Notes: generated by a model not told the origin, from the letters alone. Shown: positions 4,027 through 62,100, numbered from the stretch's first letter. The stretch: 64,000 nt of DNA from an uncultured virus (IMG/VR IMGVR_UViG_3300035187_001477) (IMGVR_UViG_3300035187_001477); one strand, 5' to 3'. Numbers and translations: made by a program.

Positions 4027-6260
4027 TTAATAAGTTCACTTAGTGTTCCACTATTAGTGTACCTTGCGAAATTAATACTAATTTTCGACTCTTTTTTGTC
4101 AGGTAAATATACATTTTTTTGGTTTGCCATTATCGCTAAACCTGAACTAATTGTTGCGTCAAACTTAGTTCTGTCACTTATATCAAATCTCGCCCAATCT
4201 TCAAGCGTTCTTGTGAATGGCATTGTCCCTATCTCATCAGCCGGTCTATAGGTACTCGTTAGGTCAAAACCTATAAACTTCTCAATATATGTCTCAATAG
4301 CTGAAGCGTGTGCCTGCTTAACCTCTTCGGATGAGTTTGGTATACCACCAAGCTCTCTTTCGGTTTTGCTCAGCTTGTTGAGTGTACGATCAGGGCGGTT
4401 CATACAGAAGTGTCTATACCCCCTGTTCTTGAAATGGTATAGAAGTCTTGGCTTATTGTTCTCCGCAAGCATAGGCATACCATAAAACACGCAAGCCATT
4501 AGCACCTCCTCAAAGAATATCTCAGCCGTCTGAGGACGAGCTATGTATTCCAAGAAGAACTGATTGGTAGGAGCATCGTCCAAATGATACTTGGTCATAC
4601 CGTGCAAGGAACCGTTTGACCCCCTCCCACCAACTACCGCTGAGATGTCATACGGGTCACAGCCAAAGGATCCGAGGTGTTCATTGCCGGGGTACTTGGC
4701 TCCGCTCCTATTGATGACATTATTCTGCATATTAGTAGGTGGAACCCAACTGATTAAGAACCTTCCCCTTGGGTCAGGACTCCATATCACTCGGCTATCT
4801 TTCTCGCCATCCTTCCAATGGAATGTTCCACGTGAAACATTATGCGCCTGAATCTGTGAATCATTGTAGTCAATCTGATGATATATCTTGGTCAGGTTAA
4901 ATAGCGCCTGCTTACTCTCATCCCTGAAGGCGTGACTTTCGGTACGAGGGAATTGCCGGTAGAACTCATTGAGCGCATCAGCATCGTTTTTAAGCGACTC
5001 AACCTCAGCCTCCCAATAGTCAATGGCTCCGTTACGAATAGTCCCTCCATCTACTCCTCTTATAGGATCAGTAGGCTTACGTAGCACAGGCATCCCATAG
5101 ATGTCGATGAACCCTTCCATATTCCATTCCATAGGAATAAACAAAGAATAGAGTCCGCTTTTGGTTTGCCCGTTAGCGTTTCGACTATCCAATGCCGAAT
5201 CTTCGTACAATTTCTTATAGTTATCGCCACCCTTGCTTAGTGCATTGGAGGTGGACCCCATCATACACTTGCCAATAATCTTGCTACCCACCCTAAGACA
5301 GGTTTTGGTTACCCTCCAATTGTTCAGGATATTATTCGGCTTTACCCACTTTGCGCTCTCATCGTGCGCAAGAAACAGCAGCTTTTCACCGTCATAAGAG
5401 TTCTCCTCAGTGTTCTTCCAATCTATCGTGGTGTCAAGACCATCTACAGTCTGAGCATCAGACTGCGACATATTCTTCTTTGTAATCTTAGAAGCCGGTA
5501 CACGGTAGGCAAGCTCAGTCTTTGGCTTGTCCATCCCATCCATTACCGGACGGAAGAAGAATGGCAGCCTGCTGTTAATGGGTACAACCTTATCGGTAAA
5601 CATCTTCTTGGCATCAGCACCCGTCTTAGACAGGATACCAACCCTTGAATCCCTTGCAAGCGTGGCTATGTTTACGCACTCTGAGGATGCCATAAATGAG
5701 AATCCTGAACGCCTGATCTTGAGGTATATCATCCCAAAGCACCGGTGGTCAGCCTTACAAGCCTCCCAAAATATAAAGAAGATACGGTTGGCTTCCCTGA
5801 AGTCAGGATAGCCTACGTCAATACTTGACCATTGTAAGTACATATAGTGAGCCCCCGTGATGTAGGTAGGTGTGCCGTTATTCATAAACCACATACCCCC
5901 TTCCCGGTAATCAAACTCCTGTTCAATGTAATCTACCCACCGGTTCTTAAACTCGGTAGGCATATCGTTCCATTGGAATATAGACTGAATCTTGGCGAGC
6001 TCCTTGGGTAAATCTCTGCGCTCCCAATACTGCTCAGCCTTAGAGTTGTGTCTTTGAAGACACTCTTTAGGCGTTGCCGGTAGGGCAATAACTAACCCTG
6101 CGATATTGATAATCTCCCCAATCTGTCCCGTCTTGGAGATGACCACCATATCGTACTGCTCATTGTAACCATACTTCCAAGACCGAACTCCGTTCTTTTT
6201 GGATATGGCGTTCTGAGGCACATAGTCATTAACGACCCGATATAGACCTTCGTTCTGCAA
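4023..6260 (-). CDS. terL: Terminase large subunit
   Basis: Walker A-like LKIRRSGFS, Walker B LLFLAHDE, C-terminal nuclease motifs GCDPYD and KFDATISSG. Confidence 0.9.
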   Translation of the reverse strand: MQNEGLYRVVNDYVPQNAISKKNGVRSWKYGYNEQYDMVVISKTGQIGEIINIAGLVIALPATPKECLQRHNSKAEQYWERRDLPKELAKIQSIFQWNDMPTEFKNRWVDYIEQEFDYREGGMWFMNNGTPTYITGAHYMYLQWSSIDVGYPDFREANRIFFIFWEACKADHRCFGMIYLKIRRSGFSFMASSECVNIATLARDSRVGILSKTGADAKKMFTDKVVPINSRLPFFFRPVMDGMDKPKTELAYRVPASKITKKNMSQSDAQTVDGLDTTIDWKNTEENSYDGEKLLFLAHDESAKWVKPNNILNNWRVTKTCLRVGSKIIGKCMMGSTSNALSKGGDNYKKLYEDSALDSRNANGQTKSGLYSLFIPMEWNMEGFIDIYGMPVLRKPTDPIRGVDGGTIRNGAIDYWEAEVESLKNDADALNEFYRQFPRTESHAFRDESKQALFNLTKIYHQIDYNDSQIQAHNVSRGTFHWKDGEKDSRVIWSPDPRGRFLISWVPPTNMQNNVINRSGAKYPGNEHLGSFGCDPYDISAVVGGRGSNGSLHGMTKYHLDDAPTNQFFLEYIARPQTAEIFFEEVLMACVFYGMPMLAENNKPRLLYHFKNRGYRHFCMNRPDRTLNKLSKTERELGGIPNSSEEVKQAHASAIETYIEKFIGFDLTSTYRPADEIGTMPFTRTLEDWARFDISDRTKFDATISSGLAIMANQKNVYLPDKKESKISINFARYTNSGTLSELIK
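4824..4839. promoter_or_regulatory. parS-consensus site TGTTCCACGTGAAACA inside terL
   Basis: Exact match to the bacterial parS consensus TGTTNCACGTGAAACA; function unproven. Confidence 0.5.
6048..6063 (-). repeat. 16-bp palindrome GTGTCTTCAAAGACAC, copy 1 of 8 (inside terL)
   Basis: + strand reads GTGTCTTTGAAGACAC. Confidence 0.95.
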
Positions 6261-6513
6261 ATCCTTGTTTTGTATCTACTCTATTTGTTCCACTCTCAAG
6301 CATCTCAAGTGCCTCCCTCTCTGCCTCGATTCGGTTAAGAATCTCAAAGGCATCAAAGATGGCAAGCTTCTTGGTAGCGGCTGCGTTCTTTAGCCTGTCT
6401 GCCGCAAGCTCATCATCAGGATCAGGCTTGATAATATCTTCCTTAGCCACTTTGATGAGCTGCTCTACGGCTTGATGACCGGCTTCAATAATTTTTAATT
6501 TAATGTCCTTCAT
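6229..6513 (-). CDS. Conserved hypothetical protein, possibly terminase small subunit
   Basis: 94-aa helical ORF overlapping the terL start. Confidence 0.5.
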   Translation of the reverse strand: MKDIKLKIIEAGHQAVEQLIKVAKEDIIKPDPDDELAADRLKNAAATKKLAIFDAFEILNRIEAEREALEMLESGTNRVDTKQGFAERRSISGR

Positions 6514-6989
6514 TACTTCTCTCTTAAAAATGCGACCTGAATTAGACGAGAATTATCGTCTTGCCCAAAGTTCTCAAAAATATTTCTACTATGCGGAACC
6601 TTTGACTCAAATACAACCATACGGTTAAACTTTGAGTACATCACGCAAACCTTACGACCATCATCGTCATAGATGGTAGTGCCATCATCGTCAGGATGCG
6701 TATGGCTCAAATACAGGATAGCTGTAATGTCGCCCATCATCTCATCCGTATGGATGAAGTTTGGCTCCTCCTGACCTTCAGGAGACTTGCGTACAAAGTT
6801 CCAAGCTACTTCATAGGTTGGTCCAACAAAGTCAATTACTGTTTGCGCAAACTCATCATCGTGGTCACGAGGCTGAATATTTTGAAACACATTGACACCA
6901 TCGTATATGTCTACGAAATCGTTATCGAGTATGTCAGACACGTAGCCAATAGGTTCGTGGATAACATTATCCATTATGATCAGGTTCAT
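6513..6989 (-). CDS. 2OG-Fe(II) oxygenase-like protein
   Basis: HxD motif (FIHTD), AILYL, GT, FNRMVVF...HSR pattern of prolyl-4-hydroxylase-like enzymes. Confidence 0.7.
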   Translation of the reverse strand: MNLIIMDNVIHEPIGYVSDILDNDFVDIYDGVNVFQNIQPRDHDDEFAQTVIDFVGPTYEVAWNFVRKSPEGQEEPNFIHTDEMMGDITAILYLSHTHPDDDGTTIYDDDGRKVCVMYSKFNRMVVFESKVPHSRNIFENFGQDDNSRLIQVAFLREK

Positions 6990-7549
6990 AGTACTATGGT
7001 TATTTGGTGGTCATACATTCTATATAGCTTCTCTCCGTCTACCTCAAATTCATATTCGCTATCAGGCTTAAAGCAGACCTTGTCTCCCTGACGCACACCC
7101 TGTTCTATAAGGTAAGCGTTAGGGTAGACCATCTCACCCATAAGGGGCTCGTTGGTAAACGGCTTTTTGATATAAGACTCAGTAGCCGGTATGGGCTTGA
7201 CAAAGCAATACCTGTCGTAAGTATGCCACTTACCATCTTGCTTGTACAGAAAGAACTGATCTTCGTCTATCAAGAATACGTCATCACGAAAAAATGATCG
7301 ACCGCTTTTTTGGCGACCTCTCATATCATTATAGAACTTAAAGACGTTGTGATGCACGAGAAGTGTATCACCTTTTCTGATTGGACCATCGTACTTATAG
7401 GGGACCTCCTCAACAATGGCATACCGGTTAGAGAACTTGTGGTCCTCCTCCGATGTGTTGACGATAAGGTCAATACCACCTACTTGCTTGGTATTAGAAT
7501 ACCTTGTCCCTGCCTGTGGCTTTACAATGAAGTTAAATGGGGATTGCAT
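6986..7549 (-). CDS. Tandem GroES-like (double Cpn10-like) protein
   Basis: Two GroES-like halves: IRKGDTLLV and VRQGDKVCF...EFEVDGEKLYRM. Confidence 0.55.
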   Translation of the reverse strand: MQSPFNFIVKPQAGTRYSNTKQVGGIDLIVNTSEEDHKFSNRYAIVEEVPYKYDGPIRKGDTLLVHHNVFKFYNDMRGRQKSGRSFFRDDVFLIDEDQFFLYKQDGKWHTYDRYCFVKPIPATESYIKKPFTNEPLMGEMVYPNAYLIEQGVRQGDKVCFKPDSEYEFEVDGEKLYRMYDHQITIVL

Positions 7550-22814: not shown

Positions 22815-23150
22815 CTAAACTTTAGAAACTCTTTTACCCATTCCAACCCTGCTCTTCTCAGCTTTTTTTGCAGCAAGTTTGGAAGGTGATATTTCACTCT
22901 TTGTTTTCGGTGTCTTTGAAGACACTCGCTTGGTTGGTCGGCAGTATTCATTACCACCTCCTGCACCACAGGCTTTGCCTGTTCGGGTATCCACCCACTT
23001 CTCGCTTTGCCATCTTTTCAAGCTCGTACCTGTCTCTGTCCTTCGGACAGTTCCGGATGCCTTCCTGCATTTTGCAATAGCTTGTGAAGCTCTTGCAGAT
23101 GGAAAGACATCATACGATGCTTTGACTTTTCTATAACAAGCGTCTTTCAT
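22815..23150 (-). CDS. Basic conserved phage protein
   Basis: SLKRWQSEKWVD...CG...YCRPTKRVSSKTPKT pattern; very K/R-rich. Confidence 0.65.
   Translation of the reverse strand: MKDACYRKVKASYDVFPSARASQAIAKCRKASGTVRRTETGTSLKRWQSEKWVDTRTGKACGAGGGNEYCRPTKRVSSKTPKTKSEISPSKLAAKKAEKSRVGMGKRVSKV
22910..22925 (-). repeat. 16-bp palindrome, copy 2 of 8 (coding)
   Basis: GTGTCTTTGAAGACAC on +. Confidence 0.95.
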
Positions 23151-27950: not shown

Positions 27951-27966
27951 GTGTCTTCAAAGACAC
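27951..27966 (+). repeat. 16-bp palindrome, copy 3 of 8 (intergenic)
   Basis: GTGTCTTCAAAGACAC. Confidence 0.95.
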
Positions 27967-28171: not shown

Positions 28172-28759
28172 ATGAGCAATCTACTACGAATCGAGGCTGA
28201 CTTTCTCCGCAGGTCGGAGGTCGCTTCAGCCCTGCGCTTGCAGGAGGTGCGCACGATACAGCGCACCATCACCAACGCAAAGAAGAAAAAATTTGAGCAA
28301 TCTCTCGCCCTGTCTCAGCACGTAAGCGCAGCGTTCACGTGGTTCAAGTCTGACGAGGGTCAGGCAAAGTTCAGGGAGGAGGGCATCTCGTGGACGGCTG
28401 AAGACTTTGGGCTCAAGGTCTTCGGATGGCAAAAGTCATTTTTTTACAAGATGGTCAAGGTCGCTGCTGTACCTGCTGAGGTAGTCGAGCGCTACAGCGC
28501 ACAGGCTGACGAGAGTGGCGAAGATGCTCAGCGCTCAGTCGAGGAGCTCCTCAGTTTTGCAAGGGCTGCGGAAAGTGGCACAGATGGCGGTGGAGAAGAT
28601 GCTCAGCCACGTGCTGAGGTAGTGCTCAGCCTGTCGTTCAATCATCCTGACGGAAAGGTCACCCTGAAAATTGATGATGCAGGGCAGGTGAAAATCAAAG
28701 GGGCTGAGAGTCTCGAGCAGGTGCGCAACGTATTAAACCAATTTCTAAACCAATTCTAA
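28172..28759 (+). CDS. First early gene; possible HTH DNA-binding protein
   Basis: AEDFGLKVFGWQKSFFYKMVKVAAVPAEVV resembles HTH segments of ParB/KorB- or DUF3102-like proteins. Confidence 0.5.
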   Translation: MSNLLRIEADFLRRSEVASALRLQEVRTIQRTITNAKKKKFEQSLALSQHVSAAFTWFKSDEGQAKFREEGISWTAEDFGLKVFGWQKSFFYKMVKVAAVPAEVVERYSAQADESGEDAQRSVEELLSFARAAESGTDGGGEDAQPRAEVVLSLSFNHPDGKVTLKIDDAGQVKIKGAESLEQVRNVLNQFLNQF

Positions 28760-29653: not shown

Positions 29654-29666
29654 GGGGAGAGGGGCG

Positions 29667-29682
29667 GTGTCTTCAAAGACAC
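29667..29682 (+). repeat. 16-bp palindrome, copy 4 of 8 (intergenic, hairpin next to ribozyme 1)
   Basis: GTGTCTTCAAAGACAC; stem extends over 29661-29688 with GU pairs. Confidence 0.95.
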
Positions 29683-29688
29683 TGCTCC

Positions 29689-29741: not shown

Positions 29742-29762
29742 AACCATAAAAATCTAAACACA

Positions 29763-31210: not shown

Positions 31211-31226
31211 GTGTCTTCAAAGACAC
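31211..31226 (+). repeat. 16-bp palindrome, copy 5 of 8 (between promoter and start codon)
   Basis: GTGTCTTCAAAGACAC. Confidence 0.95.
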
Positions 31227-38492: not shown

Positions 38493-39969
38493 GATAGTTG
38501 AGCGCACGCCCGGAGCTTCTGACTACAATATGTTCAAGTACTGCGAAATACTTTGTAAGGTGATGAGTCAGACTAAGGAAGTGAAGATTGGAAGAGGGAA
38601 GACTATCGAAGTTCATCAAACGTACAAGTATAAAGACGCTCCGCAAATATTGCCACGGCTTGAGCGCAGCCGTGATTATTACAAGGAGCTTCACGAAAAA
38701 GGAGGTAGCCAAGTGCAATTCAGACAATACCAAAAAGACATCATCGCTTCAGGATTCACCATACTGCAGGAGCACCGCTTCTTATACCTTGCTATGGAGG
38801 TGAGAACAGGCAAGACATTAACGAGTCTCGGCATTGCCAATGAGATGAGAGTTAAACACGTGCTGTTCGTCACCAAGAAGAAAGCAATGGGTAGTATCGA
38901 GGAAGACTATGCAATGTTCAACCCATCATTTAAGATGACGGTCATCAACTACGAGAGCTTGCATCACGTAATGGATGACGAGATGTGGGACTTGATTATC
39001 CTTGATGAGGCGCACAGCTTAGGAGCATTTGCTAAACCAAGCGAGAGAGCAATAATGGTAAGAGACTTGATCGAAAAGTGTAGACCAATGGTGATACTGC
39101 TGAGCGGTACGCCAACACCGGAGAGTTACTCTCAGATGTATCATCAGGTCTATGGCATACCGAACAATCCGTTCAGGCATTACAAAAACTTTTACCGGTT
39201 TGCTGATGAGCATATCAAGATTAAGCAAAAGAAAATCAACGGGCTCTTTGTTAAAGACTACAGCCACGGGAAGGACAGCATTATCGAGGCAATGAAACCA
39301 TACACCATCAACTACTCTCAGGAGGAGGCAGGCTTTGTTACGCAGGTAACCGAGGAGATACTTGAGGTGGAGCTAAAGGATAGCACCAAGACTTTGATCA
39401 AGAAACTGCAGAAGGATAAGGTGATTGAGGGTAAGAGCGAGGTAATACTTGCAGACACACCCGTGAAATTAATGATGAAGATACACCAACTTTGCAGTGG
39501 AACGATTAAGTTTGAGAGTGGCAACAGTATGGTGCTCGATACTACCAAAGCTGAATACATCAAGGATTACTTTGCCGGCTGCAAGATTGGAATCTTCTAC
39601 AAGTTTAAGGAAGAATTGTCTGCGCTAAAGCAAGTGTTCAAGGATGACTTGACAACTGAGCTCAGTGTCTTTGAAGACACTGATAAGAACATCGCACTAC
39701 AGATTGTTAGTGGACGTGAGGGAATCAGCTTGAAAAAGGCTGACTACTTAGTGTACTACAACATTGACTTTAGTGCGACAAGCTATTGGCAAAGCAAAGA
39801 CAGGATGACAACCAAGGAGCGTGCGTTCAACCACGTGTATTGGATATTTAGTAAGGATGGAATCGAGCACGACATTTACAAAGCTGTAACCAAGAAGAAG
39901 GACTATACCGTAAATCATTTTAGGAAAGACTTTTATGACGGAGCAACAGGTACAATCGAAGCTGATTAA
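38485..39969 (+). CDS. SNF2-like SF2 helicase
   Basis: MEVRTGKT, NYESL, ILDEAH, LSGTP, GREGISL, QSKDR. Confidence 0.85.
   Translation: MNEIVERTPGASDYNMFKYCEILCKVMSQTKEVKIGRGKTIEVHQTYKYKDAPQILPRLERSRDYYKELHEKGGSQVQFRQYQKDIIASGFTILQEHRFLYLAMEVRTGKTLTSLGIANEMRVKHVLFVTKKKAMGSIEEDYAMFNPSFKMTVINYESLHHVMDDEMWDLIILDEAHSLGAFAKPSERAIMVRDLIEKCRPMVILLSGTPTPESYSQMYHQVYGIPNNPFRHYKNFYRFADEHIKIKQKKINGLFVKDYSHGKDSIIEAMKPYTINYSQEEAGFVTQVTEEILEVELKDSTKTLIKKLQKDKVIEGKSEVILADTPVKLMMKIHQLCSGTIKFESGNSMVLDTTKAEYIKDYFAGCKIGIFYKFKEELSALKQVFKDDLTTELSVFEDTDKNIALQIVSGREGISLKKADYLVYYNIDFSATSYWQSKDRMTTKERAFNHVYWIFSKDGIEHDIYKAVTKKKDYTVNHFRKDFYDGATGTIEAD
39665..39680 (-). repeat. 16-bp palindrome, copy 6 of 8 (inside helicase; extends to 22 bp)
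   Basis: TCA-GTGTCTTTGAAGACAC-TGA. Confidence 0.95.
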
Positions 39970-44500: not shown

Positions 44501-47500
44501 ATCATCAACAAGCTTACCATCATAAGAATTGAATCGCTCAGCAAGCTCAGCAGCAAGTGACACATCTGCATCTACTGCATTAAGAATGTCATTAACATCT
44601 TTGGTGACAGCATTAATCTCTTCAAGTTGCAACACAGCCCTACGCTCACCCATCATTGTGACAAGCTTTGTGTATTTTTCAAACACAGCGTCAGGGATTA
44701 GGGTTGGCTTGATGGCAAGAAGGCGTTGCATCAGTGGGCTCAAGCTCTCTGCTATACCTATCTTAGTCTGTGCGTTTCTGCGTGCAGTTGGTAAAGCTTT
44801 GTTGATGGTACCAATCTGATCGGCATAGTTGGCGTTCTTAAACACCTTAGCCATATAGTCTACGAACCTACCTATTGAGTTGGGGTCAAACATATTGACA
44901 CCACTAAACTTGCTAATGATAGCTGCCGTTTGCTTGGCTGTAATGAATCCCTTGTCTGTCATAGTACGCAAATACTTAACAAGCTCTCCGCTTGTGCGCA
45001 CCCATAGCTTAATAGCATCCTTGGCTCCCTTTGCTTGGTCAGCAAGCTGCTTTTTCAACAGCTCGTACTCTGACATTGTAATCTCATTCACGTCTTTAGT
45101 CTCGCCAAAAAGTTTCTGAGGCTTAGGAGCTGCCTTCTCACGCTTACCAAATCGTTTGCGTATATCACGCACCATCTTCTCACGCTGCGTATCTGAGGCT
45201 GTCTCATATACTCGTGAGCCTTGCAGGTAAGCAATGGCGTTTTGCATTGCTTCCTCATTTGTATTGCCACGCTGCAGAGATTTTCTTACCACACCCTCAA
45301 GCTCGGTCATCATCCTGTTGAATCCGGGTAGCTCCATCTCCGTAGTATCCTCCGGTTGCGCTTGCGCATCACGTTGTTGAGCAAGGGCGCTGATGGAATC
45401 AATTACATCTTGCTCGCTCACATTGTTCTGTGCGGCAGCTCTTGTGATAGCTTCTTGCAGTGTGATACCTGTAGCGACAAGAGCCTTCACTGTTTTGATA
45501 ATGGCTTTCATAACCGGTATAGCTATGTTGATACCGGCAGTTTCTCTACCAAACTTGGTAAGGTCACCATCTACCTTATCCAAAAATTCTTTTACTCTTT
45601 CAAGAGTAGTAGCATCTTTAGTGTCTGCTGTCATCAGCTCCTCCGTTGTTGGAGCAGCACGTTCTATATCACCTGTATCTGTCTCGTTAATCTCGTAGAA
45701 CTCTGCAGGTAGAAGACCAATCTTCTGATCAGCGAACTTAAACTTCTCATATATCTGCTCCTCAATCTTACGAGCCTGTGAGTTAAGTCCTTCTTCACGA
45801 AGGGCACGTGCTTGCTGACGCAGTTCTTTAAGCGCCTCATTCTCTCCTGAGAAGTTAACGTATGAGTTCTGACCACGTGTCTCTGTGGTCATAGCCGCAC
45901 GTGCAAGTGGTGAGTACATACGTGCGTGTACGTTCCAAGCGTTCTCCTCGCCTTTAGGACCAAATGAATTGCCGAGCTCAGCGTGTCCAAAGAAATCGTG
46001 GATGGCACGGAACACGTCATTCACGAGCATAGTCTGCCCGTTCACATCTTTGAATCCTGAATCTCTTAGTAATGGGTTCTCTGCACGCTGCTCTTCTGTA
46101 ATGGCAGCATCACCAAATCCTGACTCGGTAGAAAAGATTTTCATACGCTGATTGTTTCTCAGGTCGTCAATCATCTCCTGAGAATTGGCGTATGGTTCTT
46201 CGTTATTTATCTCAACAACATAACCGGCATCGAGGAAATCTTGATACTGATCAAGGGTTTCCTTAGCCATCGCTTCGTATGCAGCTCTGACTTGGGGGTC
46301 AGTTGGGTTGTGCTGCATAGCAGCAAACGCATTAGCTATGCGTCTTGCTCTTGCTTCGTCTAACCTTTGCGATCCGTTGTACCTCGGTCTTTTCTTGCCG
46401 AAAACTCTTTGATAATATCTATCCGCAATTTGCGCAACTCTCTCGAGGGGCTTATTGAAAAGTCTGTTGCCGGGGCTTGGCTTGAAATACTCTCCGCTAT
46501 CAACGCCTTGGAACTCGGCATCCCTCCTGACTGCTTCTTCGACTGCTTGAAGAATGTTTTGCCCACTCGGTCCAAGTTCGGACCCTTTAGCTTTAATTCT
46601 TCCAAGAATTTTTTTCCTGCTTGCAACGCCAACTCTTCGGGAATCGACCGGACGGAAGTCTTGTTGTTCATAATTTATTCCTTTTGATTTAAGTAGTTCT
46701 ACAAATGTACCAATGTTTTTCTGTAACTGTGGGTCAGCAAAGTCTAATACGTCAATGAATGATACCTCACCTGTCTTCTCGTTGATACTAAAGTCAGTGA
46801 TACCTGCTTCCTTTAACGCATCTATTGCACCATCTACATCAGATACTTTAACGCTATACTCATTGGCGTTGTGCGTCTTACCACCCTGTTCGGTATACTG
46901 TGCAGCAATGGCTGCCTCCTGCACCTGTGGAGCAAATGCACTTACGAGTGCAGCATATTCTTCAGCCTGCTCGATGGTAGCACCCTCAAGGTCTACAGCG
47001 TTTGATATTTCTACAATCCTTTCACCTTTATTATTCTCATACCCACCAATAAACTCAAGGACGTTGGTCTTGATACCAAGTAAACTGCCAATATCTGCAA
47101 GTGTTTGCAGGTATCCCTTATACGCAGGAGACTCTCTTAATGCTGCAGCTTCTGAGGTAGACCCAACTTGTGTGTTAAAGAATGGAGCTACATTTACCCG
47201 TGTCTTTGAAGACACTTTTTGAAGAGCATCTAATTCGTTAAGAGCTTCATCCACTGCTATGGTTTGATCTCCAATAGTGATGGTCTCTTGATCATCTTCT
47301 ACAGCAGCGAGCGCTTTGATTAGCGCATCTTTCCTTTCTTGTTGTTCGGGGCTGAGGACTTTTTCACCCTCTTGGGTAATGACTTCAAGTCCTGTTTTGG
47401 GTTCTCCTTGCGCCAACGCTTCGCTATCTCCGGGTGTTGGCTGAACAGATACTTGACCTGCTGCTTGCTTTTGAATGGCATCTTGTGATATTTTAGTTAG

Positions 47501-49774: not shown

Positions 49775-49792
49775 TAGATTTTTTTTGTTCTG

Positions 49793-51622
49793 TTAATCCA
49801 ATTCACCTTTTAAGATTCCCTTACCCTCAAGACCTTTTAAGAATATAACTTGATCTTCTGCAGATGCGCCCGGAACATTTGAAAGCATAAATGCTCTTAT
49901 TTTTTCGGCTGCCTTTGCAGGATCACTTAAGTATATTGCAGAAGATGATTTGCCATCAGAATTTGTTAATACAATTGCATCAGACCCAATAACAGCTTCT
50001 CTAACGCTAAACCCAAGCTCATTAAACTTCGCTTCGTTTGCAGAAATAAAATCAGTTTCATCTGTTGGTTGATTAGCACCTGAGAATACCGTTTTAAGGT
50101 GGTCTGCATACATCTTGTTAGGGTCACCTGTTTTCTTAGGACCTGTAGAAGTAGCCTTAGCTTCCCCTGCTTGGAATGTTGTAGTCTTAGTTTGAAGTGC
50201 ACCCTTTACAACTTCGTTAACATCAACTGTTCCTCCAAGAAGTAGAGGAGCTGCTGAACGAACAAAGTCTTGTTGAGTCATCATCTCTCCCGTGTTAGCG
50301 TTCTTGAATGGAATAGCTTTAGTCGAACCATCATTAAAGGTAATGCTAACTCCATCATTAGTTCTACTTACATCTTTTACATTTGGCATACCATAGAAGT
50401 GGTTGATAGCAGCTTGTTGTTCTGCAGGAGTACCACTATATAGTTTAGCCAACATATTACCTGATGTCTGAGCGCTTTTCTTTTGATCACCTCTTTCATA
50501 AACGTATTGAGGAGGATAGTAAGTAGGCTCTTTTCGTGGCTGACTGAACGGTTGCACTTCAGTTTTCTGCTCAAGCATACTACGAAACTTATTTTTAGTA
50601 TACTCTTCAGCAGTCTTTAACTGATCCTTGCCATTCTGTGTGCTCTCAAAGTCAGGTTGAAATACACCATCCTTATGAGACCACAATATATAATGAGAGC
50701 TTGAATTTGCTACGTTAGGGTCCGTTGTAACCTGATAAGCTTTGCCTGATTTAGGGTCAATGCCTCCGGTCCAATCAAACAATATGGAAGATACGTGCGC
50801 AGGGTTAGATAGTTGCGCCTGTACAATAAGTTTTTCGCTTTCAATATATTTGTCGACAGCTTGCTGTCCTTCTTGACTAAGACCAACACGTTTAGTTGGG
50901 TCTGTAACCTTGGTAAGGAAGCCTGTCTGAGTTGCACTACCTGTAGAAGTAACAACCTCCTTTACCACATCGCCTAATAATTTTGCCTCTTGACTTAGGT
51001 TTTCATTCAGAGCGTACTTGTCAATCTTTTCTTTGATACGGTTACGCAGTTGGTTTACCGTCATATAATTGTCGGGACCTTCAGCAAGAGTCTTAACACC
51101 ATTTTTATCTACCATCTTACCAATGCTGATAGCACCGGTAGTTGGATTAATCAAAGCTTTGGTTTGACCAAGGTTTGCAAATCCTTCAACCATTGCCATA
51201 AACTGAGTCTCAGCTTCTGAGCTTTCACCCTTCTGCCTACGCTCTGTCTTTACAGAAAACTCATCTTGATATTCTTTCGCAAGGTCAAACATTCTTTTAG
51301 TTCCATCCTTGCTATTCTGACGAATGAGCGCATAGTCTTTAGGTTTCATTTGACCCGACTTAAGAAGTCTGTCTGTAAGAAGTCTATACTGCTGCATATC
51401 ACCGGCATAGTCTGTAATGTACTTATTTACATCATCAGACAATCCTTGTGGTGCGTTCTCAAGTTCTTCACCAAACTGACGAGACGCATCATCAAGAGCC
51501 TTCTTTTTTGCTTCACGAAGTGATGCCTCTTGCTTTAGAGTATTGGTTAATTGACTACCAACCTCCGACCAATCTATCTGATTCTTGGCTTCCCGTTCAG
51601 CGTATTTGTAATATGTTGCCAT
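49793..51622 (-). CDS. Putative internal virion protein
   Basis: 609 aa; position in the ejection module. Confidence 0.55.
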   Translation of the reverse strand: MATYYKYAEREAKNQIDWSEVGSQLTNTLKQEASLREAKKKALDDASRQFGEELENAPQGLSDDVNKYITDYAGDMQQYRLLTDRLLKSGQMKPKDYALIRQNSKDGTKRMFDLAKEYQDEFSVKTERRQKGESSEAETQFMAMVEGFANLGQTKALINPTTGAISIGKMVDKNGVKTLAEGPDNYMTVNQLRNRIKEKIDKYALNENLSQEAKLLGDVVKEVVTSTGSATQTGFLTKVTDPTKRVGLSQEGQQAVDKYIESEKLIVQAQLSNPAHVSSILFDWTGGIDPKSGKAYQVTTDPNVANSSSHYILWSHKDGVFQPDFESTQNGKDQLKTAEEYTKNKFRSMLEQKTEVQPFSQPRKEPTYYPPQYVYERGDQKKSAQTSGNMLAKLYSGTPAEQQAAINHFYGMPNVKDVSRTNDGVSITFNDGSTKAIPFKNANTGEMMTQQDFVRSAAPLLLGGTVDVNEVVKGALQTKTTTFQAGEAKATSTGPKKTGDPNKMYADHLKTVFSGANQPTDETDFISANEAKFNELGFSVREAVIGSDAIVLTNSDGKSSSAIYLSDPAKAAEKIRAFMLSNVPGASAEDQVIFLKGLEGKGILKGELD

Positions 51623-51625
51623 TTA

Positions 51626-52402
51626 TTAAAACTTGAATGATTTTCTTAAATCCTTTAAGTAATCGGGACTTAAGCCTCCCATAAAAGCTTGGAACTCGAG
51701 TGGGTTCATACCACCAACACCGGCTAAGTTCCCAAACGTAGGCGATGCTGCACCAAATTCAGCAAGCTTTTGTTGAAATTGATCTTGAGTAAGCCCTGCT
51801 TTTTCTGCACCTCCTGCTAATTTACCAAATTGTTTTGCACCTGCTGATTTAGAGTACAATGGAGCCATACTTGCTACCTGACCTGCCATACTTACTACAC
51901 CTTCCAATGCTTGTTTGGTTGCTGCTTGAGACCTTGTCTCAGCTTCTCTCGCTTTTAACTGAGCACCCTCAACTTCTGCAAGATCAAGACCCATACCTAC
52001 ATCACGAAGTCTGCTATCTTCAGCGGCTTCAAGTTTATCAAGCGCCTGCATCTCACCACCCATTTGTGTAGCAATATCACGCTGTGCTTTTTCAGCACCC
52101 AAGAATACACGTCCTGCAGTAGCTGCTGAACCACGCTCGCTTTCTTGACCTGCCTCAATAGCTTGAGCTGCAGTAGAAGTAACGGCTTCACGAGCAAGCT
52201 CGTATGGTTCTTTTTGAATACCCAACTGCTCGTAGAAGTTTACGTCAAGTTTTTTACGAGCGTCAGCCATAAACTTAGCTGCATCTGCTTCAGCTTTTTT
52301 CTGAATTTTACGTTGCTTTGATGCTTGCGAAAATGATGCCGCAGTAGTTCCTGCAGTAGCTGCTAAGCCTATACCTGCTGCAATGGTTGTGAAAGCTGCC
52401 AT
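51626..52402 (-). CDS. Putative internal virion (pilot/ejection) protein
   Basis: Ala/Gly-rich hydrophobic N-terminus followed by an A/Q/E-rich helix. Confidence 0.6.
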   Translation of the reverse strand: MAAFTTIAAGIGLAATAGTTAASFSQASKQRKIQKKAEADAAKFMADARKKLDVNFYEQLGIQKEPYELAREAVTSTAAQAIEAGQESERGSAATAGRVFLGAEKAQRDIATQMGGEMQALDKLEAAEDSRLRDVGMGLDLAEVEGAQLKAREAETRSQAATKQALEGVVSMAGQVASMAPLYSKSAGAKQFGKLAGGAEKAGLTQDQFQQKLAEFGAASPTFGNLAGVGGMNPLEFQAFMGGLSPDYLKDLRKSFKF

Positions 52403-52403
52403 A

Positions 52404-52814
52404 TTACAATACTTTTATTAGTTCACCTATATACCCATCGCCTAAGATATACCCTAATTCTTTATAGGTATCCTTTAGCCCCGGGTGTTTTATCAAAGCA
52501 TAAGAATATTTATGCCCTGTATTTCTACAAATATTAGTCAATGTTTCGACCAATAGTTTTATTGCCTCACTTCTCTCCGGTTTCTTTCTATACTCCTTGT
52601 TGGATATTATCCAATCAACCCACGCAACCTTTGAGTTCGTGGTGTATATAAATCCTGCACACACCGGCTCATCTTCATCAAGCACCATTATGCCACCCTT
52701 ACCATCATCAGGTAAGAAATCTCGTTGAGCAGGCTCCCATCCCCATTCCTTCCACCACCCTACTAACGTAGAATCATAATCATTTTCGTTCAATGGTCGT
52801 ACAATAAATGCCAT
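52404..52814 (-). CDS. GNAT-fold protein
   Basis: PVCAGF...YKELGY pattern; usual podovirus position between tail and ejection genes; TATCTTTG at 52820-52827. Confidence 0.55.
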   Translation of the reverse strand: MAFIVRPLNENDYDSTLVGWWKEWGWEPAQRDFLPDDGKGGIMVLDEDEPVCAGFIYTTNSKVAWVDWIISNKEYRKKPERSEAIKLLVETLTNICRNTGHKYSYALIKHPGLKDTYKELGYILGDGYIGELIKVL

Positions 52815-52835
52815 CTATACAAAGATATTGAAAAA

Positions 52836-53642
52836 TTAAGGATAACTTTTCATCACTTCTGACTCTACGGCAAAGAGTTCTACCTGACTAACACTATTGT
52901 TTTCAAGGTTGAAAACGCAGTAGTGTCCGAGGACACCGTGCGATTCTGCCACAGCGTTTTTGATAAACATTATGTACGGGTTCTGTATAGCCGGGATGGT
53001 AGCTCCGGGTATGGTCGTATCCACCGTAATCCTGTTAAGGTTGGATGGATAGTTCTGCTGAATATTGGTCACCCTCCCGAACAGCAAAGGCGTATTGTAA
53101 GTTGGGGGCAGGCTATAGTATAGCATATCCCCGATGCTTATGATACTACCTATTGATATAGGGCTTGCTCCGATCGCAAAATTGACCTGAACGGCTGACC
53201 CTGTACCGGTAATGGTAGTGCTCCTACCTATACCATTGGTAAGCCTAAGAGCGTACTCAGAAGGCTGTGCCGGTGTAGTACCTGCGTTACGGACAAAGGC
53301 AAAGAAAGAGGCTTCCTTCTTTTCAAAGTAGCTGCCTTGAATAAAGCCATCGTCCATTAAGTCGGTCACCATTGTTACGGACCAAGGAGCATCACCTTCT
53401 AAGTTGATGGTTTTGAATAGCTTATTCTCAAGCGGAGACTCATTGAATACGCTTTGTATACGTGATGGGTACTGCACTCCGTAAAAGTTATTACGGGTGT
53501 TGTTTACGTTGTGCCTATACAGGTTTCCACCCTTAAACGTATAGAAGTAGTTATTCATCCCGATCATCCAATCAGGCAAAAAGGAATAGAAGGATGCCCA
53601 TCCTTCTACCCCTTCACTATATGTTAGTGTATATGCTGCCAT
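52836..53642 (-). CDS. Tail nozzle/stabilisation protein, C-terminal part
   Basis: TLTYSEGVEGWASFYSF...NKLFKTINLEG...FEKKE. Confidence 0.6.
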   Translation of the reverse strand: MAAYTLTYSEGVEGWASFYSFLPDWMIGMNNYFYTFKGGNLYRHNVNNTRNNFYGVQYPSRIQSVFNESPLENKLFKTINLEGDAPWSVTMVTDLMDDGFIQGSYFEKKEASFFAFVRNAGTTPAQPSEYALRLTNGIGRSTTITGTGSAVQVNFAIGASPISIGSIISIGDMLYYSLPPTYNTPLLFGRVTNIQQNYPSNLNRITVDTTIPGATIPAIQNPYIMFIKNAVAESHGVLGHYCVFNLENNSVSQVELFAVESEVMKSYP

Positions 53643-53645
53643 AGT

Positions 53646-54806
53646 TTAACATTGTACTGATGAATAAGCTGTTATCTCTCCCCCTCCGCTCATATCCCAA
53701 TTTGCAGAAGCAAACACAAATAGCTCGAGAACAGGACTTGTCATTGCCGCATCCCAAAATAAGTTGCATCCTACATTAGGTGTTGGACAATCGCAGTATA
53801 GAATCTTAGGGTTTGTGCCTGCATCAGAACAAGCTGCAGCGGCACTTACATTGCTTACTCCGCATCCTCCAATAGAATAAGACCCTCCACCTGAGCAAGG
53901 TCCAATTGCCACAATAACACCATTGGCATCTACCTGAAACCAATCGTTAGTTGTTCCTGCAACAGCGGTATGATAGTATCCGGCAGTAAGCTTAAACTCA
54001 CCGTTAGGGTCACTGAATACTAAATCGTATAGCCCAAGTGTCCCTGCACCGCCTGTAACATAAGCTACATAATATCCTACAGTAATTCCTAATGCACAAG
54101 CAGCGGTATTAGTTGCAGCCATTGGAGATGCCTCAAAAACAGGTAAAGCTGCAGGGCAAGCAACTGACAAATCAAATGCTGTTCCTGAGCAGGGACCAAT
54201 GAATGTCAAGTCAAGTATAGATGGTGCAGCGGTTGTTTTTGGTATTACCATTACGCAATTACCGGGACCTCCTACTGTTAAATCCATTTGCCCTGACAAA
54301 ACACTAACTGTTGTAGTCGTACCTAATGAAGAAAAAGTTGTTCCGTTATACTCATATTCGTCAAGAGTATGAGGAGAACCTGAAACAATATTACAATCTG
54401 CAGATGTAGCTCCAATATACGTAGGAAGACCTGCGCTACCTTGTAACCATCCGTATGATGGAGAAGATAGACCATTGTAAGATATACTATTAAACACAGC
54501 TAATACGCCATCCGGCACGCTGTATGGATCAAACGTAACTACAACAGCGCCTGTGTCAGTTCCTAAGTCTATTCCTACATAGTATATACCCTGTTGTCCC
54601 GATGCTGCTATTGATCCCCCACAAGGAGTAGCACAAGATGGGCAAGAGGTCTGAGGCAGTAATACACCCGACACTTGCTCACGCACAATTGTACCATCTG
54701 AGTAAAACCCATCAGGCGCAACCGTGGTCAGATTAACATCGGTATAAATAATTGTAGCTGACGCAAGAGATGGCGCATCTACGTAAAAAGTTCCTTGTGT
54801 TGCCAT
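53646..54806 (-). CDS. Cys-rich virion protein
   Basis: N-terminus paralogous to the 81-aa ORF; many Cys pairs. Confidence 0.6.
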   Translation of the reverse strand: MATQGTFYVDAPSLASATIIYTDVNLTTVAPDGFYSDGTIVREQVSGVLLPQTSCPSCATPCGGSIAASGQQGIYYVGIDLGTDTGAVVVTFDPYSVPDGVLAVFNSISYNGLSSPSYGWLQGSAGLPTYIGATSADCNIVSGSPHTLDEYEYNGTTFSSLGTTTTVSVLSGQMDLTVGGPGNCVMVIPKTTAAPSILDLTFIGPCSGTAFDLSVACPAALPVFEASPMAATNTAACALGITVGYYVAYVTGGAGTLGLYDLVFSDPNGEFKLTAGYYHTAVAGTTNDWFQVDANGVIVAIGPCSGGGSYSIGGCGVSNVSAAAACSDAGTNPKILYCDCPTPNVGCNLFWDAAMTSPVLELFVFASANWDMSGGGEITAYSSVQC

Positions 54807-54817
54807 TTAATTTAAGT

Positions 54818-55063
54818 TTATGGTGCGATACAGTTACAACATACATCAAGTGCGCTTACAGTTGAATAACAAAGAGTAACCTCTGTACCACAACCGGGGC
54901 AAGCTGATTGAGCTTGTAGCACCCCACTAACCTGTTGCCTAACAATACTATTATCTGAATAGTACCCATCAGGCGCAAGAGTTGTGAGTCCAACATTAGT
55001 GTAAACTGCAGTTGCCGTAGCAAGTGACGCAGCGTTTAAGTAATAAGTTCCTTGTGTTGCCAT
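54818..55063 (-). CDS. Small Cys-rich virion protein
   Basis: MATQGTYY...APDGYYSD...LCYS...DVCCNC. Confidence 0.6.
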   Translation of the reverse strand: MATQGTYYLNAASLATATAVYTNVGLTTLAPDGYYSDNSIVRQQVSGVLQAQSACPGCGTEVTLCYSTVSALDVCCNCIAP

Positions 55064-55074
55064 TTTATTTTATT

Positions 55075-58000
55075 TTAATCATTACAACCGCAGCAAGCAT
55101 CCAACAAACTTACGTTTGAGTAGCATAAATCAAATGCCGGTGGAGGTACATCGCATCCGCAACAAGCGTTGTTTGTGTCTGCATCAGAGTAACACAACTC
55201 AAGTGGCAGAGAGCTTCTGTAATCCCATATCAAATATAAATATTGTCCGCTGCTTGGGACGGTAAAAGTTCCTGTATAATATCCTGCTGCTCCTGTTGGT
55301 GCAACTGTTGTAGCTGCTGCAAGTAAATTTGCAATGCCAACCTGAGTGTTAGGGTATAGTGTATTGCTTCTTAAATATCTAAACTTATTGTAAGAAGGAT
55401 TGAAATCAAAAGTATCAAATCCTTGCTTGTTTGAAATCAACTCCATTGCTGCTCCTGAAGGAGGGAATCCACCTGTGCCTTGAGGACCAATGATAATATT
55501 GTACTCAGATACCACAGGACTTTGAGCAGATGAATCAAATGTTACAAGTGTAGACTGAAGAGGTGAAATAAATCCTGCATCCGTATACCTGTACTCATTA
55601 TGGATAAACTTACCGGCATCGGCATTGCTTGTTAAGCAGATGTTGACAATACCTATCTCGTTTGCTTCTACGCAGTTTACAAGTACGCTTACATTGACGT
55701 TGTCAGTAGCAATAACATTAACAATAAGTTCGTTAATAGCGTTACTGTTTTTGGCTATTGTAAGAGACCCTGATGTAGTTACTACCCCTGAAGAAACAGT
55801 AGTTAACCCATAAGTTACTACCACTTCAAATTCAGCAGTTGATGATGGGTCTACCGTATAGTCAACGATACAGTCTCCAACAGAGGTGTCTTCAAATATC
55901 ACCCCATACTGCCTGTTTGATCCTGCTTCAATAGTGAAGTCTTGCTCGATACCGCAACTATAAATAATAGGAGGAATAGGCACAGAGCTGTCGTTAGTGG
56001 TGAGCACATACTCATTCATATATGGGTCAAACCCACCAAGCTTTTGAGTATTGAAGGATTGGATAAAGTTATCTCTAAACCAAGTCCGCATACCTTGCTC
56101 AGACACCACTCTTAATTGGTCTGTGCTATAAGAGTTTCCAATAAGTTGCAGTACAGCCCCACGCTTTACGTCTGTAAAGTATCTATAGTAACCCCATTGT
56201 ACATAGCTTTCAGGATGGAAGCTGATACCATACTTCTCAACACGAGCAATTTGAGTACCCAATACTTCAGGCACGGAGGTAATAGCACCACCGGCTGCAG
56301 CATCTGAGAGTAAGTTCTTGCCTGCAAGTACGTATGAAATCTTATCTTCTTGTAGCGTAAGTACGTCAGTCTCTCGTCCATCTAACTTATAGATAGGACC
56401 GAATGATACCTCTAAATATTTGTAGTTAAGCAGTCCTAAATTGAACTCATTTAATTTATTAACATTTGACTCAAAGTTATACACACCACTGTATGTGATG
56501 TCAGCAAAGCGCCTTGTTCTCTTGTATTGCTGTACCGATATGGACGTTACACGGTTGCCAAGATTAAAGGTCTTGCCAATAATTGAGTCACGAATCTTAT
56601 AGCTTTCAGCACCATTACCAAAACAGAAACAGTTAAAGAACTCTGTGTCTATTATTGCCGGCAAAGATGCAGTTTGGTTCTGTATGTTACCCAAGTGTCT
56701 TCCGTTGGCATCAATACCAAAAGACAAATGATTCTCAAAGAATACATCAGGTAATGAGTCAACGGGTTGTGTCTCGAATATCAGGGTAGTCTCAGCTCTA
56801 AACACTTCAATGTTTACAATAACAGTAGACCTACGCTTCTCTCTCGAAGCTACACCACCACATCTAAGAGTACCACTGACAATAAGAGTTAGCTGATTAT
56901 TGGCAGGATTGCGATAGAACCTATAATAGTTTTTACACAAATCAGTTGAAATGTCTGTGTTGTTTGATGCAAGTGTAGGTATAAATTCATTTTCAACAGG
57001 ACATTCATTACCCCCAACCTCTTGATCTCCATCATCAAGTATCTGTTCTACGTTGTCTCCAATCCACCACTCCATCATATTATCATAATTGGCAGAAGAA
57101 ACAAGCGTTTTCTCTAAAGTATAAATACGCCTCTCACAAGCTCCATTACCTTGACCAACACCAAGACGCTGAAACTTAAAATATAATTTAATTCTACTAC
57201 CGGCAGGTACAGTATAATCAACCCAAGCACTTGTTGCGGTATCAAATCTGTTCATTGGGTAGTTCAAAATAGGATACTCTCCTGCATCGTTTTGATCTAC
57301 CTGTTCGTTGCCCGGTGCAATAATTGAAAGTTCATCCTGAACAACAGCAAAGCTGTTTGGATTAATCTTCATATATACCCCCGATGGAACAGGAATATTT
57401 ACGGTAGGGTCAAGTTCACTTGGTATCTCAATGAATCCTGCTTGCTTAGCTTCTTTCTCAAGCACTGTTGCGTATACGCAATTATTTGTAGGTCCACTTG
57501 TGTCAGCCTTTACGATAAGCCTATCACCCTGCTGTACCTTACGTGCGTTTTCTCCTTCAAGTAAAAAGTATGCGTTATTACTTAGAGGGTCGTCAAAGAA
57601 GATGCTACTATATATGGTATCGTAACTTTCTTCGTCAGGCTTAATAACAAACTTATATCTCTTAGCCCAAGCCGGAGCTATCTGAGTTGTAGGAATAGTT
57701 ACCCTAATAGAGTTCTTGGTATCAGATGCAGAGCAAGGAATGTGTACTGTATTTCTTGGACTAACCAAGGCTGTAGTAGAACGACCAAAGTCATCCATAT
57801 ACACGATACCAATCTCATACCCACGATTGCTATGCAAGCTGCGTGGTGAATTTATTTTTTGATAGAAAGCTTCTGCAAAGTTTACTGAGTAATACTCATA
57901 CACACTAATTGTTGGTGTAGTAGTATTGTCAACATATCTCATTGCAGGAAACTGTAGACCAATTATTTGACTTGCAGGTGTAGTAATAATGCTTATTGGC

Positions 58001-60472: not shown

Positions 60473-60474
60473 AA

Positions 60475-61294: not shown

Positions 61295-62041
61295 CTATGC
61301 TAAGTTACTTTCAAGCATCTTAAGGGCATCAATTCCTTCATCGGTCTTCAGAAACTCCGCAACGGTAAAGTAGGGGTCTTGAGCATACGGAACGGTCAAC
61401 ATCTTCTTCTTATTGGACCCCGTATTAAACCATACTTCCTTCTGTCCGTTCCTGAATGTCAATAATTTATTCTCAAAGAACACGTGTACGTTTGACTGTA
61501 GCTTCAGCATTGGGTCCCCAAGTACATTTAAGAATCCTTTGGGGTCTCGCTTGGCATAAATCAGTACATCTCTTTTAAGCTCAGAACTTGTAAATCTCGA
61601 TGGGTCTTTGCCAAAGAGAACTCTTGACACACTCTCGAGCTGCTCCAAAGAGAGCTGACGAGCTTGAATCAAGGCATCCACCTCCACAGTTAAACTCTCT
61701 ACCTCTTTTGCAGCATCTTTTTCATTGTCTACCTCAATAAAAGTCCTACCATTTAGGGGGTGGTAGTACAAGAACTCTTGTAAAACAGGGTTATTTTTAG
61801 GAACGCTAAGAAACCCGTTCTCGAATATAACAGGTTCGACAATGGCATTACCGTCTTGCTCGTCCTCAAAAGGAGTCTTTTGGTTGACAGCGTATCGCAA
61901 GGGTCGGTTAATATTGTTTTCTTCATCGAACCAAAGTAATGGATAACGTCTTGTATTTCTTGAAGGTAGCGTATATGAAAGGGGGGCTACGTCCCCTTTA
62001 AGCTTGTAAATCCTGTCAGCAGGAACCAATTTCTTTTTCAT
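61295..62041 (-). CDS. Conserved hypothetical protein downstream of MCP
   Basis: 248-aa ORF. Confidence 0.65.
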   Translation of the reverse strand: MKKKLVPADRIYKLKGDVAPLSYTLPSRNTRRYPLLWFDEENNINRPLRYAVNQKTPFEDEQDGNAIVEPVIFENGFLSVPKNNPVLQEFLYYHPLNGRTFIEVDNEKDAAKEVESLTVEVDALIQARQLSLEQLESVSRVLFGKDPSRFTSSELKRDVLIYAKRDPKGFLNVLGDPMLKLQSNVHVFFENKLLTFRNGQKEVWFNTGSNKKKMLTVPYAQDPYFTVAEFLKTDEGIDALKMLESNLA

Positions 62042-62064
62042 TAGATTTTAATTTGATTAGATTA

Positions 62065-62100
62065 AAAATAAGGGGGAGTGTCTTTGAAGACACCCCACCC
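62065..62100 (-). terminator. Probable terminator after MCP whose stem contains palindrome copy 8 (62078-62093)
   Basis: GGGTGGG-GTGTCTTCAAAGACAC-TCCCCC-TTATTTT on the minus strand. Confidence 0.65.

Follow-up and report, generated by a model that had tools for sequence, protein, structure and literature searches.

The window analysed here, a 64,000-nt stretch of DNA from an uncultured virus (IMGVR_UViG_3300035187_001477), contains exactly eight exact copies of the palindromic 16-mer GTGTCTTCAAAGACAC. On balance we favour the interpretation that this motif serves as a double-stranded DNA operator for a sequence-specific regulator encoded by the phage, namely the 195-aa protein of gene 28172-28759 (hereafter gene 28172), the first of the early genes. 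The motif is conserved among relatives, its copies change type in concert within a genome, they decay in relatives that lost the system, and the motif co-occurs with gene 28172. That the protein is the reader, that it reads DNA and what its binding would bring about we infer from these comparisons together with structure prediction. The window represents a single phage genome of ~63.1 kb with overlapping ends. Its TerL protein is related to those of Elemovirus, Cellulophaga and Tenacibaculum phages, and of the named records MW202828.1 (W01; 77%) is nearest. Gene names were assigned from PHROGs and Pfam.

Eight copies of the palindrome in the window

A sequence search returned all eight copies described in the original prediction. 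They are located as follows (the strand refers to the CA centre):

6048..6063, CA on the minus strand: TerL gene (4023-6260, -), codons ECLQRH
22910..22925, CA on the minus strand: DUF5872 gene (22815-23150, -), codons VSSKT
27951..27966, CA on the plus strand: 221 nt upstream of the ATG of gene 28172, between divergent promoter-like boxes
29667..29682, CA on the plus strand: apex of a 13-bp RNA hairpin (about 29660-29689) adjoining hammerhead 1
31211..31226, CA on the plus strand: 5' leader of the GATase/GGACT gene (ATG 31247), inside hairpin 31204-31231
39665..39680, CA on the minus strand: helicase gene (38443-39969, +), codons SVFEDT
47200..47215, CA on the minus strand: gene of a 2752-aa virion protein (41516-49774, -), codons VSSKT
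62078..62093, CA on the minus strand: apex of a terminator hairpin (62070-62102, -), downstream of the capsid gene 62119-63540

Four of the eight copies are within genes and in frame. Their predicted codons match the coordinates of the open reading frames (ORFs), and the four predicted intergenic contexts (early promoter, ribozyme 1, GATase leader and capsid (MCP) terminator) were likewise found as described. No additional sites with one or two mismatches exist beyond opposite-strand readings of the same copies. In 100 dinucleotide shuffles, with two mismatches allowed, the mean was 0.06 matches and the maximum 2, in line with the earlier statement that chance copies are very unlikely. None of the copies is located inside the terminal overlap of the window. 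It had also been noticed that CA is found on the transcribed strand in seven of eight cases. This is true for the window but does not represent a rule, as the capsid-terminator copy of the relative G003 reads TG in sense. The idea that the CA orientation signals the polarity of replication or transcription was discarded, since the centre flips at homologous sites.

The copy at 27951 is surrounded by the following boxes, which resemble promoters of the Bacteroidota-type consensus:

27683, -: CAAATATA
28097, +: TAATTTTG
28145, +: TATATTTG, with the motif ~180 bp upstream

Lying between these divergent boxes, the copy at 27951 is probably not transcribed. The surrounding region (27820-28015) consists of a ~130-nt C/T-rich tract with CCTCC-type repeats leading to the motif, beyond which come a purine-rich stretch and a further CCTCCCC run. 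It is situated in the divergent promoter region with the groEL block on one side and the early block on the other, and could represent an origin or DNA prone to form structures.

Where copies are intergenic, the motif is found at the tip of a longer hairpin with covarying outer pairs, and the hairpins of the window fold well. The copy at 29667 ends 5 nt before a type III hammerhead ribozyme (29688-29742), and the copy at 31211 is found 29 nt past a TATCTTTG box and 20 nt short of the ATG at 31247. The hairpin at 62070-62102 (-24.5 kcal/mol, z -5.07) is G+C-rich, lies 25 nt past the capsid ORF and is directly followed by the U-run UUAUUUUU, as is typical of an intrinsic terminator.

Conservation, concerted type switching and loss among relatives

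Related sequences were obtained by an exact 16-mer search of IMG/VR, yielding at least 163 stretches with at least 168 sites, and by a motif-unbiased sample of 80 loci fetched via the primase (≥79% identical). Over 600 related contigs are present in IMG/VR, and the phages of this family are expected to infect Flavobacteriia-type hosts. Counting the motif in related phages had been proposed as a check, and it turned out that relatives possess 8-19 copies of GTSTC-N6-GASAC at homologous places: TerL, the DUF5872 gene, the helicase, the capsid-gene terminator, early 5' untranslated regions and hammerhead neighbours. GTGTC-N6-GACAC is found 13 times each in G003 and G004 and 19 times in the partial record G002. 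Sorted by their flanks, the sites among the IMG/VR matches listed fall into these classes:

TerL: 42/168
terminator-like: 30/168
DUF5872: 18/168
ATG 12-27 nt downstream: 18/168
hammerhead core follows: 15/168
helicase: 6/168
other: 39/168

Among relatives the presence of the motif is all-or-none. The 32 primase-anchored loci of at least 20 kb have either 5-9 copies (18 loci) or zero (14 loci), and nine whole records hold 0-1 copies. At the level of single sites, the TerL copy is present as the motif in G003 and G004 and as type 3 (see below) in G008, and is decayed in G005, G006, G007 and W01. The DUF5872 copy is conserved in G003 and G004, a hybrid in G008 and decayed in G005 and G006. The helicase site is kept in every motif-bearing relative examined apart from W01 and is decayed in G005 and G006. 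Homologues of the GATase-leader site exist in G003, G004 and, as type 3, in G008, whereby the outer stem covaries (GGG/CCC, GGA/TCC, GAGG/CCTC). The equivalent of the giant virion-protein gene in G002, G003 and G004 carries copies as well, at different offsets.

Three specificity types can be distinguished, GTGTCT..AGACAC (type 1), GTGTCG..CGACAC (type 2) and GTCTCT..AGAGAC (type 3), and the sites of one genome switch jointly. In W01 (type 2) 14/14 copies read GTGTCGTTAACGACAC, pair 6/11 having changed from T-A to G-C. G008 and G009 (type 3) show GTCTCT-TCRA-AGAGAC at 10 and 11 places, with pair 3/14 changed from G-C to C-G. The type 3 sites include homologues of the TerL, GATase-leader, helicase and capsid-terminator copies of the window: the helicase site reads GTCTCT..AGAGAC (codons SLFEET) in L249/G008 and L272/G009, and the apex of the capsid terminator is of type 3 in G008. 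A concerted change which includes the coding copies argues for a trans-acting reader with changed specificity.

As to the arrangement of sites in W01, all 14 are located inside an 11-kb early region (43745-55154) and none in late genes. Nine of them are situated in intercistronic gaps at near-fixed spacing.

The motif-less G005 has many accessory genes in common with the window, and its DNA around the homologous sites is 79-85% identical at four of five aligned sites (68% in a partial alignment at 47200). Its TerL, DUF5872 and helicase sites are degraded. At its capsid terminator the outer stem is retained and the apex consists of an unrelated small hairpin, GTGCCGTTTGGCAC. The sites of G007 carry one or two changes each, and none is left at the late sites of G006 and W01. 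The decay of sites in relatives without the system implies that the motif is maintained only where the system is present. Together with the joint switching of coding and intergenic copies, it bears out the earlier proposal that selection acts on the nucleic acid.

Neither the 16-mer nor its complement or RNA spelling had a match in the literature text searched. Among the papers listed on phage intergenic hammerheads and on palindromes in Elemovirus/Cellulophaga phages none was relevant. Exact copies are furthermore found on two contigs of metagenome-assembled genomes (MAGs), WTJX01000555.1 (L306-L309, L338; 56 kb, Cytophagales MAG, at least 5 copies) and JBMZDR010000022.1 (L361-L362; 32 kb, Flavobacteriaceae MAG, 2 copies). 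Both are probably phage contigs of the motif family, hinting at its host range.

Gene 28172 tracks the motif

The candidate reader gene is the first gene of the rightward early block:

28172..28759, +: candidate reader gene, 195 aa, with a helical domain resembling a helix-turn-helix (HTH) fold (1-135), an acidic linker and a small beta/alpha C-domain

In iterated profile searches of 67 window ORFs against ten relatives, gene 28172 was the only one to track the motif. Its presence was also checked by six-frame and whole-record searches. Altogether the gene is found in 11/12 motif-bearing records vs 0/9 motif-less ones, counted over related records with no phylogenetic correction. The sole miss among the motif-bearing records is G017, a 69%-complete fragment. 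Ten of the records in these totals have the gene in 0/5 cases where the motif count is 0 and in 4/5 cases where it is 8-15. G009 is an apparent exception, its homologue being split over contig ends, and the homologue of G004 has a divergent start. Six-frame searches revealed a homologue in no motif-less genome. Moreover, a motif copy is located at most 600 nt upstream of the gene in 12 of the 14 records whose gene is full-length, often accompanied by another copy directly past the stop codon. The gene family comprises 324 cluster representatives at E≤1e-3.

Other candidates were tried and rejected. The DnaA-C HTH proteins 33912 and 40143 occur in motif-less genomes too, and 24227 occurs in both motif-bearing and motif-less relatives; among the binders named in the original prediction it is 28172 that tracks the motif. 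Gene 30059 is missing from the motif-bearing W01, G003, G008 and G009. G009 also has neither 28772 nor 31247, both of which occur in the motif-less G006.

The candidate reader is predicted to be an HTH-like homodimer

The 28172 protein matches no Pfam family at E≤0.01, and among 11 family members no ParB-type family appears at E≤5. Sequence searches of the PDB with the family (phmmer/hmmsearch) gave no match, and Foldseek with the model of the protein gave nothing at E≤0.001. The sole lead from the ESM Atlas is DUF3102 (0.93, 150 shared features).

The AlphaFold (AF2) model consists of nine helices, the acidic linker and a C-domain of three strands plus a helix, with a pLDDT of 80.8 for the whole chain and 91.5 for the N-domain alone. 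With the exhaustive aligner VIA-wide the model aligned to KorB (8qa8, Z 5.5, 74 aa, rmsd 2.9; KorB-operator 1r71, Z 4.9-5.8) and to the ParB-type proteins VirB (3vwb, 4.6), SopB (3mkw, 4.6), P1 ParB (1zx4, 4.5) and Spo0J (1vz0, 4.1-5.3). Other top rows were DeoR, sigma region 4, Fis and Mu Mor. All Z scores range from 4.1 to 5.8, whereby the tool cautions that values below 8 possibly reflect a common helical arrangement. The models thus point weakly towards an HTH of the ParB/KorB kind in the N-domain, as a lead rather than a demonstration.

A homodimer model reached a score of 0.70 vs 0.00 for three controls, a mark attained by 20/30 solved homo-pairs and 1/23 single chains. The homodimer runs showed a contact agreement of at least 91% and a partner pLDDT of at least 79. 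The predicted interface involves residues 7-84 and 149-195; the putative recognition helix (88-98) is not part of it. The 28172 protein is hence predicted to be a symmetric homodimer. An N-terminal CTPase domain of the ParB/Srx type was not found in it, the 195 residues being taken up by the helical domain, the linker and the C-domain, and a PHROGs scan of 56 window ORFs revealed no ParA/IncC-type ATPase.

RNA elements next to the motif

Two ribozyme elements are located in the early operon, both ~20 nt before the next ATG:

29688-29742, +: type III hammerhead ribozyme (hammerhead 1), Rfam RF00008, 44.4 bits
29991-30044, +: second hammerhead-like element with open stem I, recognised by eye, GGTTAA-CTGACGAG-..-CGAAAC-..-GTC-TTAACC

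The RF00008 match is below the gathering threshold (48.5) but covers the full model (1-54), with an E value of 1.9e-6 for the window and 1.5e-8 for a search of 501 nt. Its core is complete, with CUGAnGA..GAAA, a GUC cleavage triplet and three stems, and the same hammerhead scores 40.5-45.3 bits in relatives. Rfam gave no match at E≤1 for the second element. Similar hammerhead elements are present in relatives, including the motif-less G005 and the Elemovirus W02, Elemovirus likewise being without the motif system. In L232 and L252 the motif is located 2-7 nt before Rfam hammerheads, as in the window.

Elements resembling tRNA are found in relatives as well. In L232 (9270-9382) a tRNA gene (Rfam 43.6 bits; ARAGORN tRNA-Val, 93 nt) follows a motif copy at a distance of 5 nt. 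A T-arm-like GGTTCGAGTCC hairpin, embedded in a multi-branched fold closed by a long stem, follows the motif at a distance of 8-25 nt at these sites:

L272: 1192-1290, 2089-2190 and 3633-3730
L252: 4985-5090
L249: 1624-1720
L225: 2513-2610

Neither ARAGORN nor the Rfam tRNA model calls these folds. The window contains one T-arm-like match, with one mismatch and at chance level. Mimicry of an anticodon loop was rejected, as the 5-bp stem gives a loop of 6 and not 7 nt and ARAGORN finds no tRNA there.

Variation within the motif is strand-symmetric

Strand-specific conservation, with G·U kept and A·C not, is displayed by the flanking stems and not by the motif itself. At position 6/11, 152 distinct sense-strand sites of relatives include T·G 10 times vs C·A 9 times. 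The one-mismatch variants (n=19) are of the A·C type in 8 cases, of the G·U type in 6 and of other types in 5, and are distributed evenly over the 5' arm (10) and the 3' arm (9). Within-motif variation is strand-symmetric.

Further variants concern both orientation and centre. L252 has one asymmetric variant in both orientations, and in G008 hybrid half-sites with a C·C clash persist. The centre of the 152 sense-strand sites reads CA in 70, TG in 44, TA in 18 and CG in 17 cases. In L256 the stem sequence is conserved and the centre is free; elsewhere the centre is always a Y-R step which flips at homologous sites. Conservation is concentrated in two 6-bp blocks 10 bp apart, not in the loop. 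A conserved stem sequence with a free or Y-R centre is the pattern of an HTH-dimer site.

Proposed mechanism and alternative explanations

We propose that the 28172 protein would bind as a symmetric dimer, each HTH-like domain reading one 6-bp half-site (GTGTCT / AGACAC) with the half-site centres 10 bp apart and the 4-bp centre (T-Y-R-A) little read. The reader would flank its own gene, presumably for autoregulation. At sites just downstream of early promoters, or between them and start codons, it may act as a roadblock or repressor, and it would also occupy a few fixed late-gene sites, much as KorB does on plasmid RK2. A transcribed palindrome folds on itself, so sites would be placed where this costs least: at the apex of RNA hairpins (the terminator, the pre-hammerhead hairpin, the 5' leader) and in tolerant protein stretches. 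Hammerheads and hairpins also occur in motif-less relatives, and they are best read as existing for RNA reasons, with the operator lodged in a sequence-free apex.

Several points weigh against this operator interpretation. The link between protein and site is drawn from co-occurrence in sequence records which are themselves related, with the gene residing in an exchangeable early module. The fold similarity of the models is weak, with all Z below 6 and the Foldseek, Pfam and PDB sequence searches blank. No residue-to-base code relating the recognition helix to the three motif types is apparent from six readers, and the samples behind the strand symmetry are small (19 variants). The remaining points also favour an RNA function. 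The flanking stems covary, with 37 G·T vs 6 A·C on the sense strand (49 sites) against a background of 82 vs 67 (171 sites). Sites are tied to RNA features, namely type III hammerheads in the window, L232 and L252, the tRNA in L232 and terminator tips. In W01 and G002 they are regularly placed, 3-4 nt past stop codons and 16-23 nt before ATGs, and in L256 four of seven sites have GNRA-type loops (GTGA, GTAA) on the sense strand. The functional form could accordingly be the RNA hairpin GUGUCU-UYRA-AGACAC, bound in transcripts by a phage protein (28172 or other) or an RNase. Such binding would mark or protect the 3' ends produced by hammerheads, RNase P or terminators, or regulate how the gene 16-23 nt downstream is translated. 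U6·G11 variants occur as well. We regard this as possible but doubtful. Within the motif the two mismatch types are balanced on the sense strand, homologous sites show both loop orientations plus two palindromic centres, and clashing half-sites persist. It is the stem sequence rather than the loop that is conserved, which is unusual for RNA-binding proteins. In addition, the best-tracking gene resembles an HTH DNA-binding dimer, and the copy upstream of it is probably untranscribed. Of the RNA alternative raised in the original prediction, the hairpins themselves are real and the motif forms their apex; the variation of the motif itself does not follow RNA pairing on one strand. A combination of both functions, in which the same protein would read the duplex as a genome-wide operator and also the apical RNA hairpin beside hammerheads, tRNA-like elements and the capsid terminator, appears rather unlikely to us. 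If true, transcriptional shut-off would be linked through one early protein to the control of self-cleavage, termination or 3'-end stability, amounting to a protein-gated "punctuation" system for polycistronic phage RNA.

The palindrome had been proposed as a binding site for a dimeric phage or host protein, and it is the phage dimer with an operator network that we prefer. General scans of the ORFs against libraries recognised no phage RNA polymerase gene in the window, and together with the Bacteroidota-type boxes this speaks for host factors at work on the phage DNA, so that the phage might exploit the site of a host regulator, nucleoid protein or RNase. It is nevertheless very improbable that the motif is such a site. 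It is all-or-none among close relatives (primase ≥79% identical), tracks a phage gene, and its three types substitute for one another within the family. No host chromosome motif emerged either: 185,579 bacterial and archaeal species genomes were scanned, and among the matches listed there are scattered single copies in all phyla and several copies only on the two phage-like contigs of the Cytophagales and Flavobacteriaceae MAGs. Being short, palindromic, multi-copy and often extragenic at gene ends, the motif also recalls REP elements. Hairpin promoters are known for phage N4. A selfish REP/MITE-like repeat or a single-stranded DNA hairpin signal (N4-type hairpin promoter, priming or nicking site) nevertheless has hardly any probability in our view. 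In divergent genomes copies are found in frame at homologous positions and switch type without changing their location, which indicates point evolution under a reader and not insertion. General ORF scans of the window revealed no HUH/RAYT-type gene or transposase. The G·T pairs of the flanking stems are on the sense and not the template strand, and half of the copies are mid-gene in long genes, remote from starts. The 2752-aa giant protein, checked as a virion RNA polymerase with hairpin promoters, had neither a PDB sequence match nor a relevant Pfam match.

Further features of the genome

Positions 1-872 are repeated at 63129-64000, imperfectly, with the first difference at offset 128. This head/tail repeat is terminal redundancy or a population variant. 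The record G001 has 63,364 nt vs a period of 63,128 nt in the window. Among named phages, megablast found no match to the giant gene. GroEL (532 aa) and GroES-like proteins are phage-encoded (24654-24911, 25535-27133, 6986-7549) and kept even in Elemovirus.

The four public runs matched are represented by contigs of wastewater "RNA-Seq" libraries, probably DNA, which carry neither ends nor strands. Contigs from two of the public runs join 25085 to 25535 and thereby skip gene 25086-25538 (150 aa, nucleotide pyrophosphohydrolase-like PHROG hits). This junction is a natural deletion variant of the gene.

Implications

With the proposed operator, a family of 324 representatives without Pfam or PDB relative gains a concrete and testable partner site. 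Three specificity types and close relatives having lost gene and sites represent a natural experiment, which could shed light on DNA recognition by a minimal KorB-like reader and on the re-tuning of an entire set of operators. The compact phage genome would hide its operators within genes and at the apices of functional RNA hairpins. Also noteworthy is that, in a widespread family, hammerhead ribozymes punctuate an early operon, and orthogonal protein-site pairs could become regulatory parts for Bacteroidota.

Comparison with known systems

RNA processing hairpins such as T7 RNase III sites, REP and the Csy4/Cas6 hairpins are situated between cistrons and at 3' ends, as some of the copies are here together with hammerheads and the terminator. 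In those systems structure and loop are conserved on one strand, whereas our motif has 12 invariant stem bases, occurs in both orientations, varies strand-symmetrically and persists in coding regions. Four of the eight copies being in frame within genes at homologous positions, and no HUH/RAYT transposase appearing in the scans, it does not resemble REP/RAYT or MITE elements either.

The promoters of T7, T3 and SP6 and the operators and immunity types of lambdoid phages are sets of near-identical sites per genome which co-vary with a phage-encoded reader. The discrete types among relatives are similar to types 1, 2 and 3 described here. In contrast to the T7/T3/SP6 sets, our sites are palindromic, and their positions are not those of promoters: the gap from site to ATG is too short to accommodate one, and some sites are mid-gene. 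The candidate reader is no polymerase.

ParB-parS and the SopB sites of the plasmid-prophage N15 offer another comparison. They are 16-bp palindromes as well, several per replicon and some in genes, and are read by an HTH dimer. The dispersed SopB sites of N15 also influence phage gene expression. In the models, the DNA-binding domains of SopB, P1 ParB, VirB and Spo0J are among the structural rows (Z 4.1-4.6). The window differs by having no partition ATPase, no CTPase domain, a sequence unlike parS and no lysogenic or plasmid indication.

The IncP plasmid RK2 carries 12 OB sites for KorB, a global repressor belonging to the ParB family. As with KorB/OB, a short palindrome is found about a dozen times on a ~60-kb replicon, with copies both near and far from promoters, and its reader, here a candidate, would be a dimeric HTH protein encoded by the same replicon. 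Multiple short palindromic sites on one replicon, some of them in genes, are typical of ParB/KorB systems, and the best structural rows of the modelled N-domain are the KorB DNA-binding domains 8qa8 and 1r71. KorB is reported to exert operator-dependent long-range repression (PMC11790492). On the other hand, the 16-bp sequence differs from OB and is embedded in coding sequence and at ribozyme-side RNA hairpin tips, and the window shows no sign of plasmid maintenance. The candidate reader has 195 aa, and as it is without the N-terminal CTPase domain of ParB, a ParA/IncC or KorA-like partner among the ORFs scanned and detectable sequence similarity, it is not a demonstrated member of the ParB/KorB family. 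Taken together, by analogy the system would be most similar to KorB/OB in its operation.

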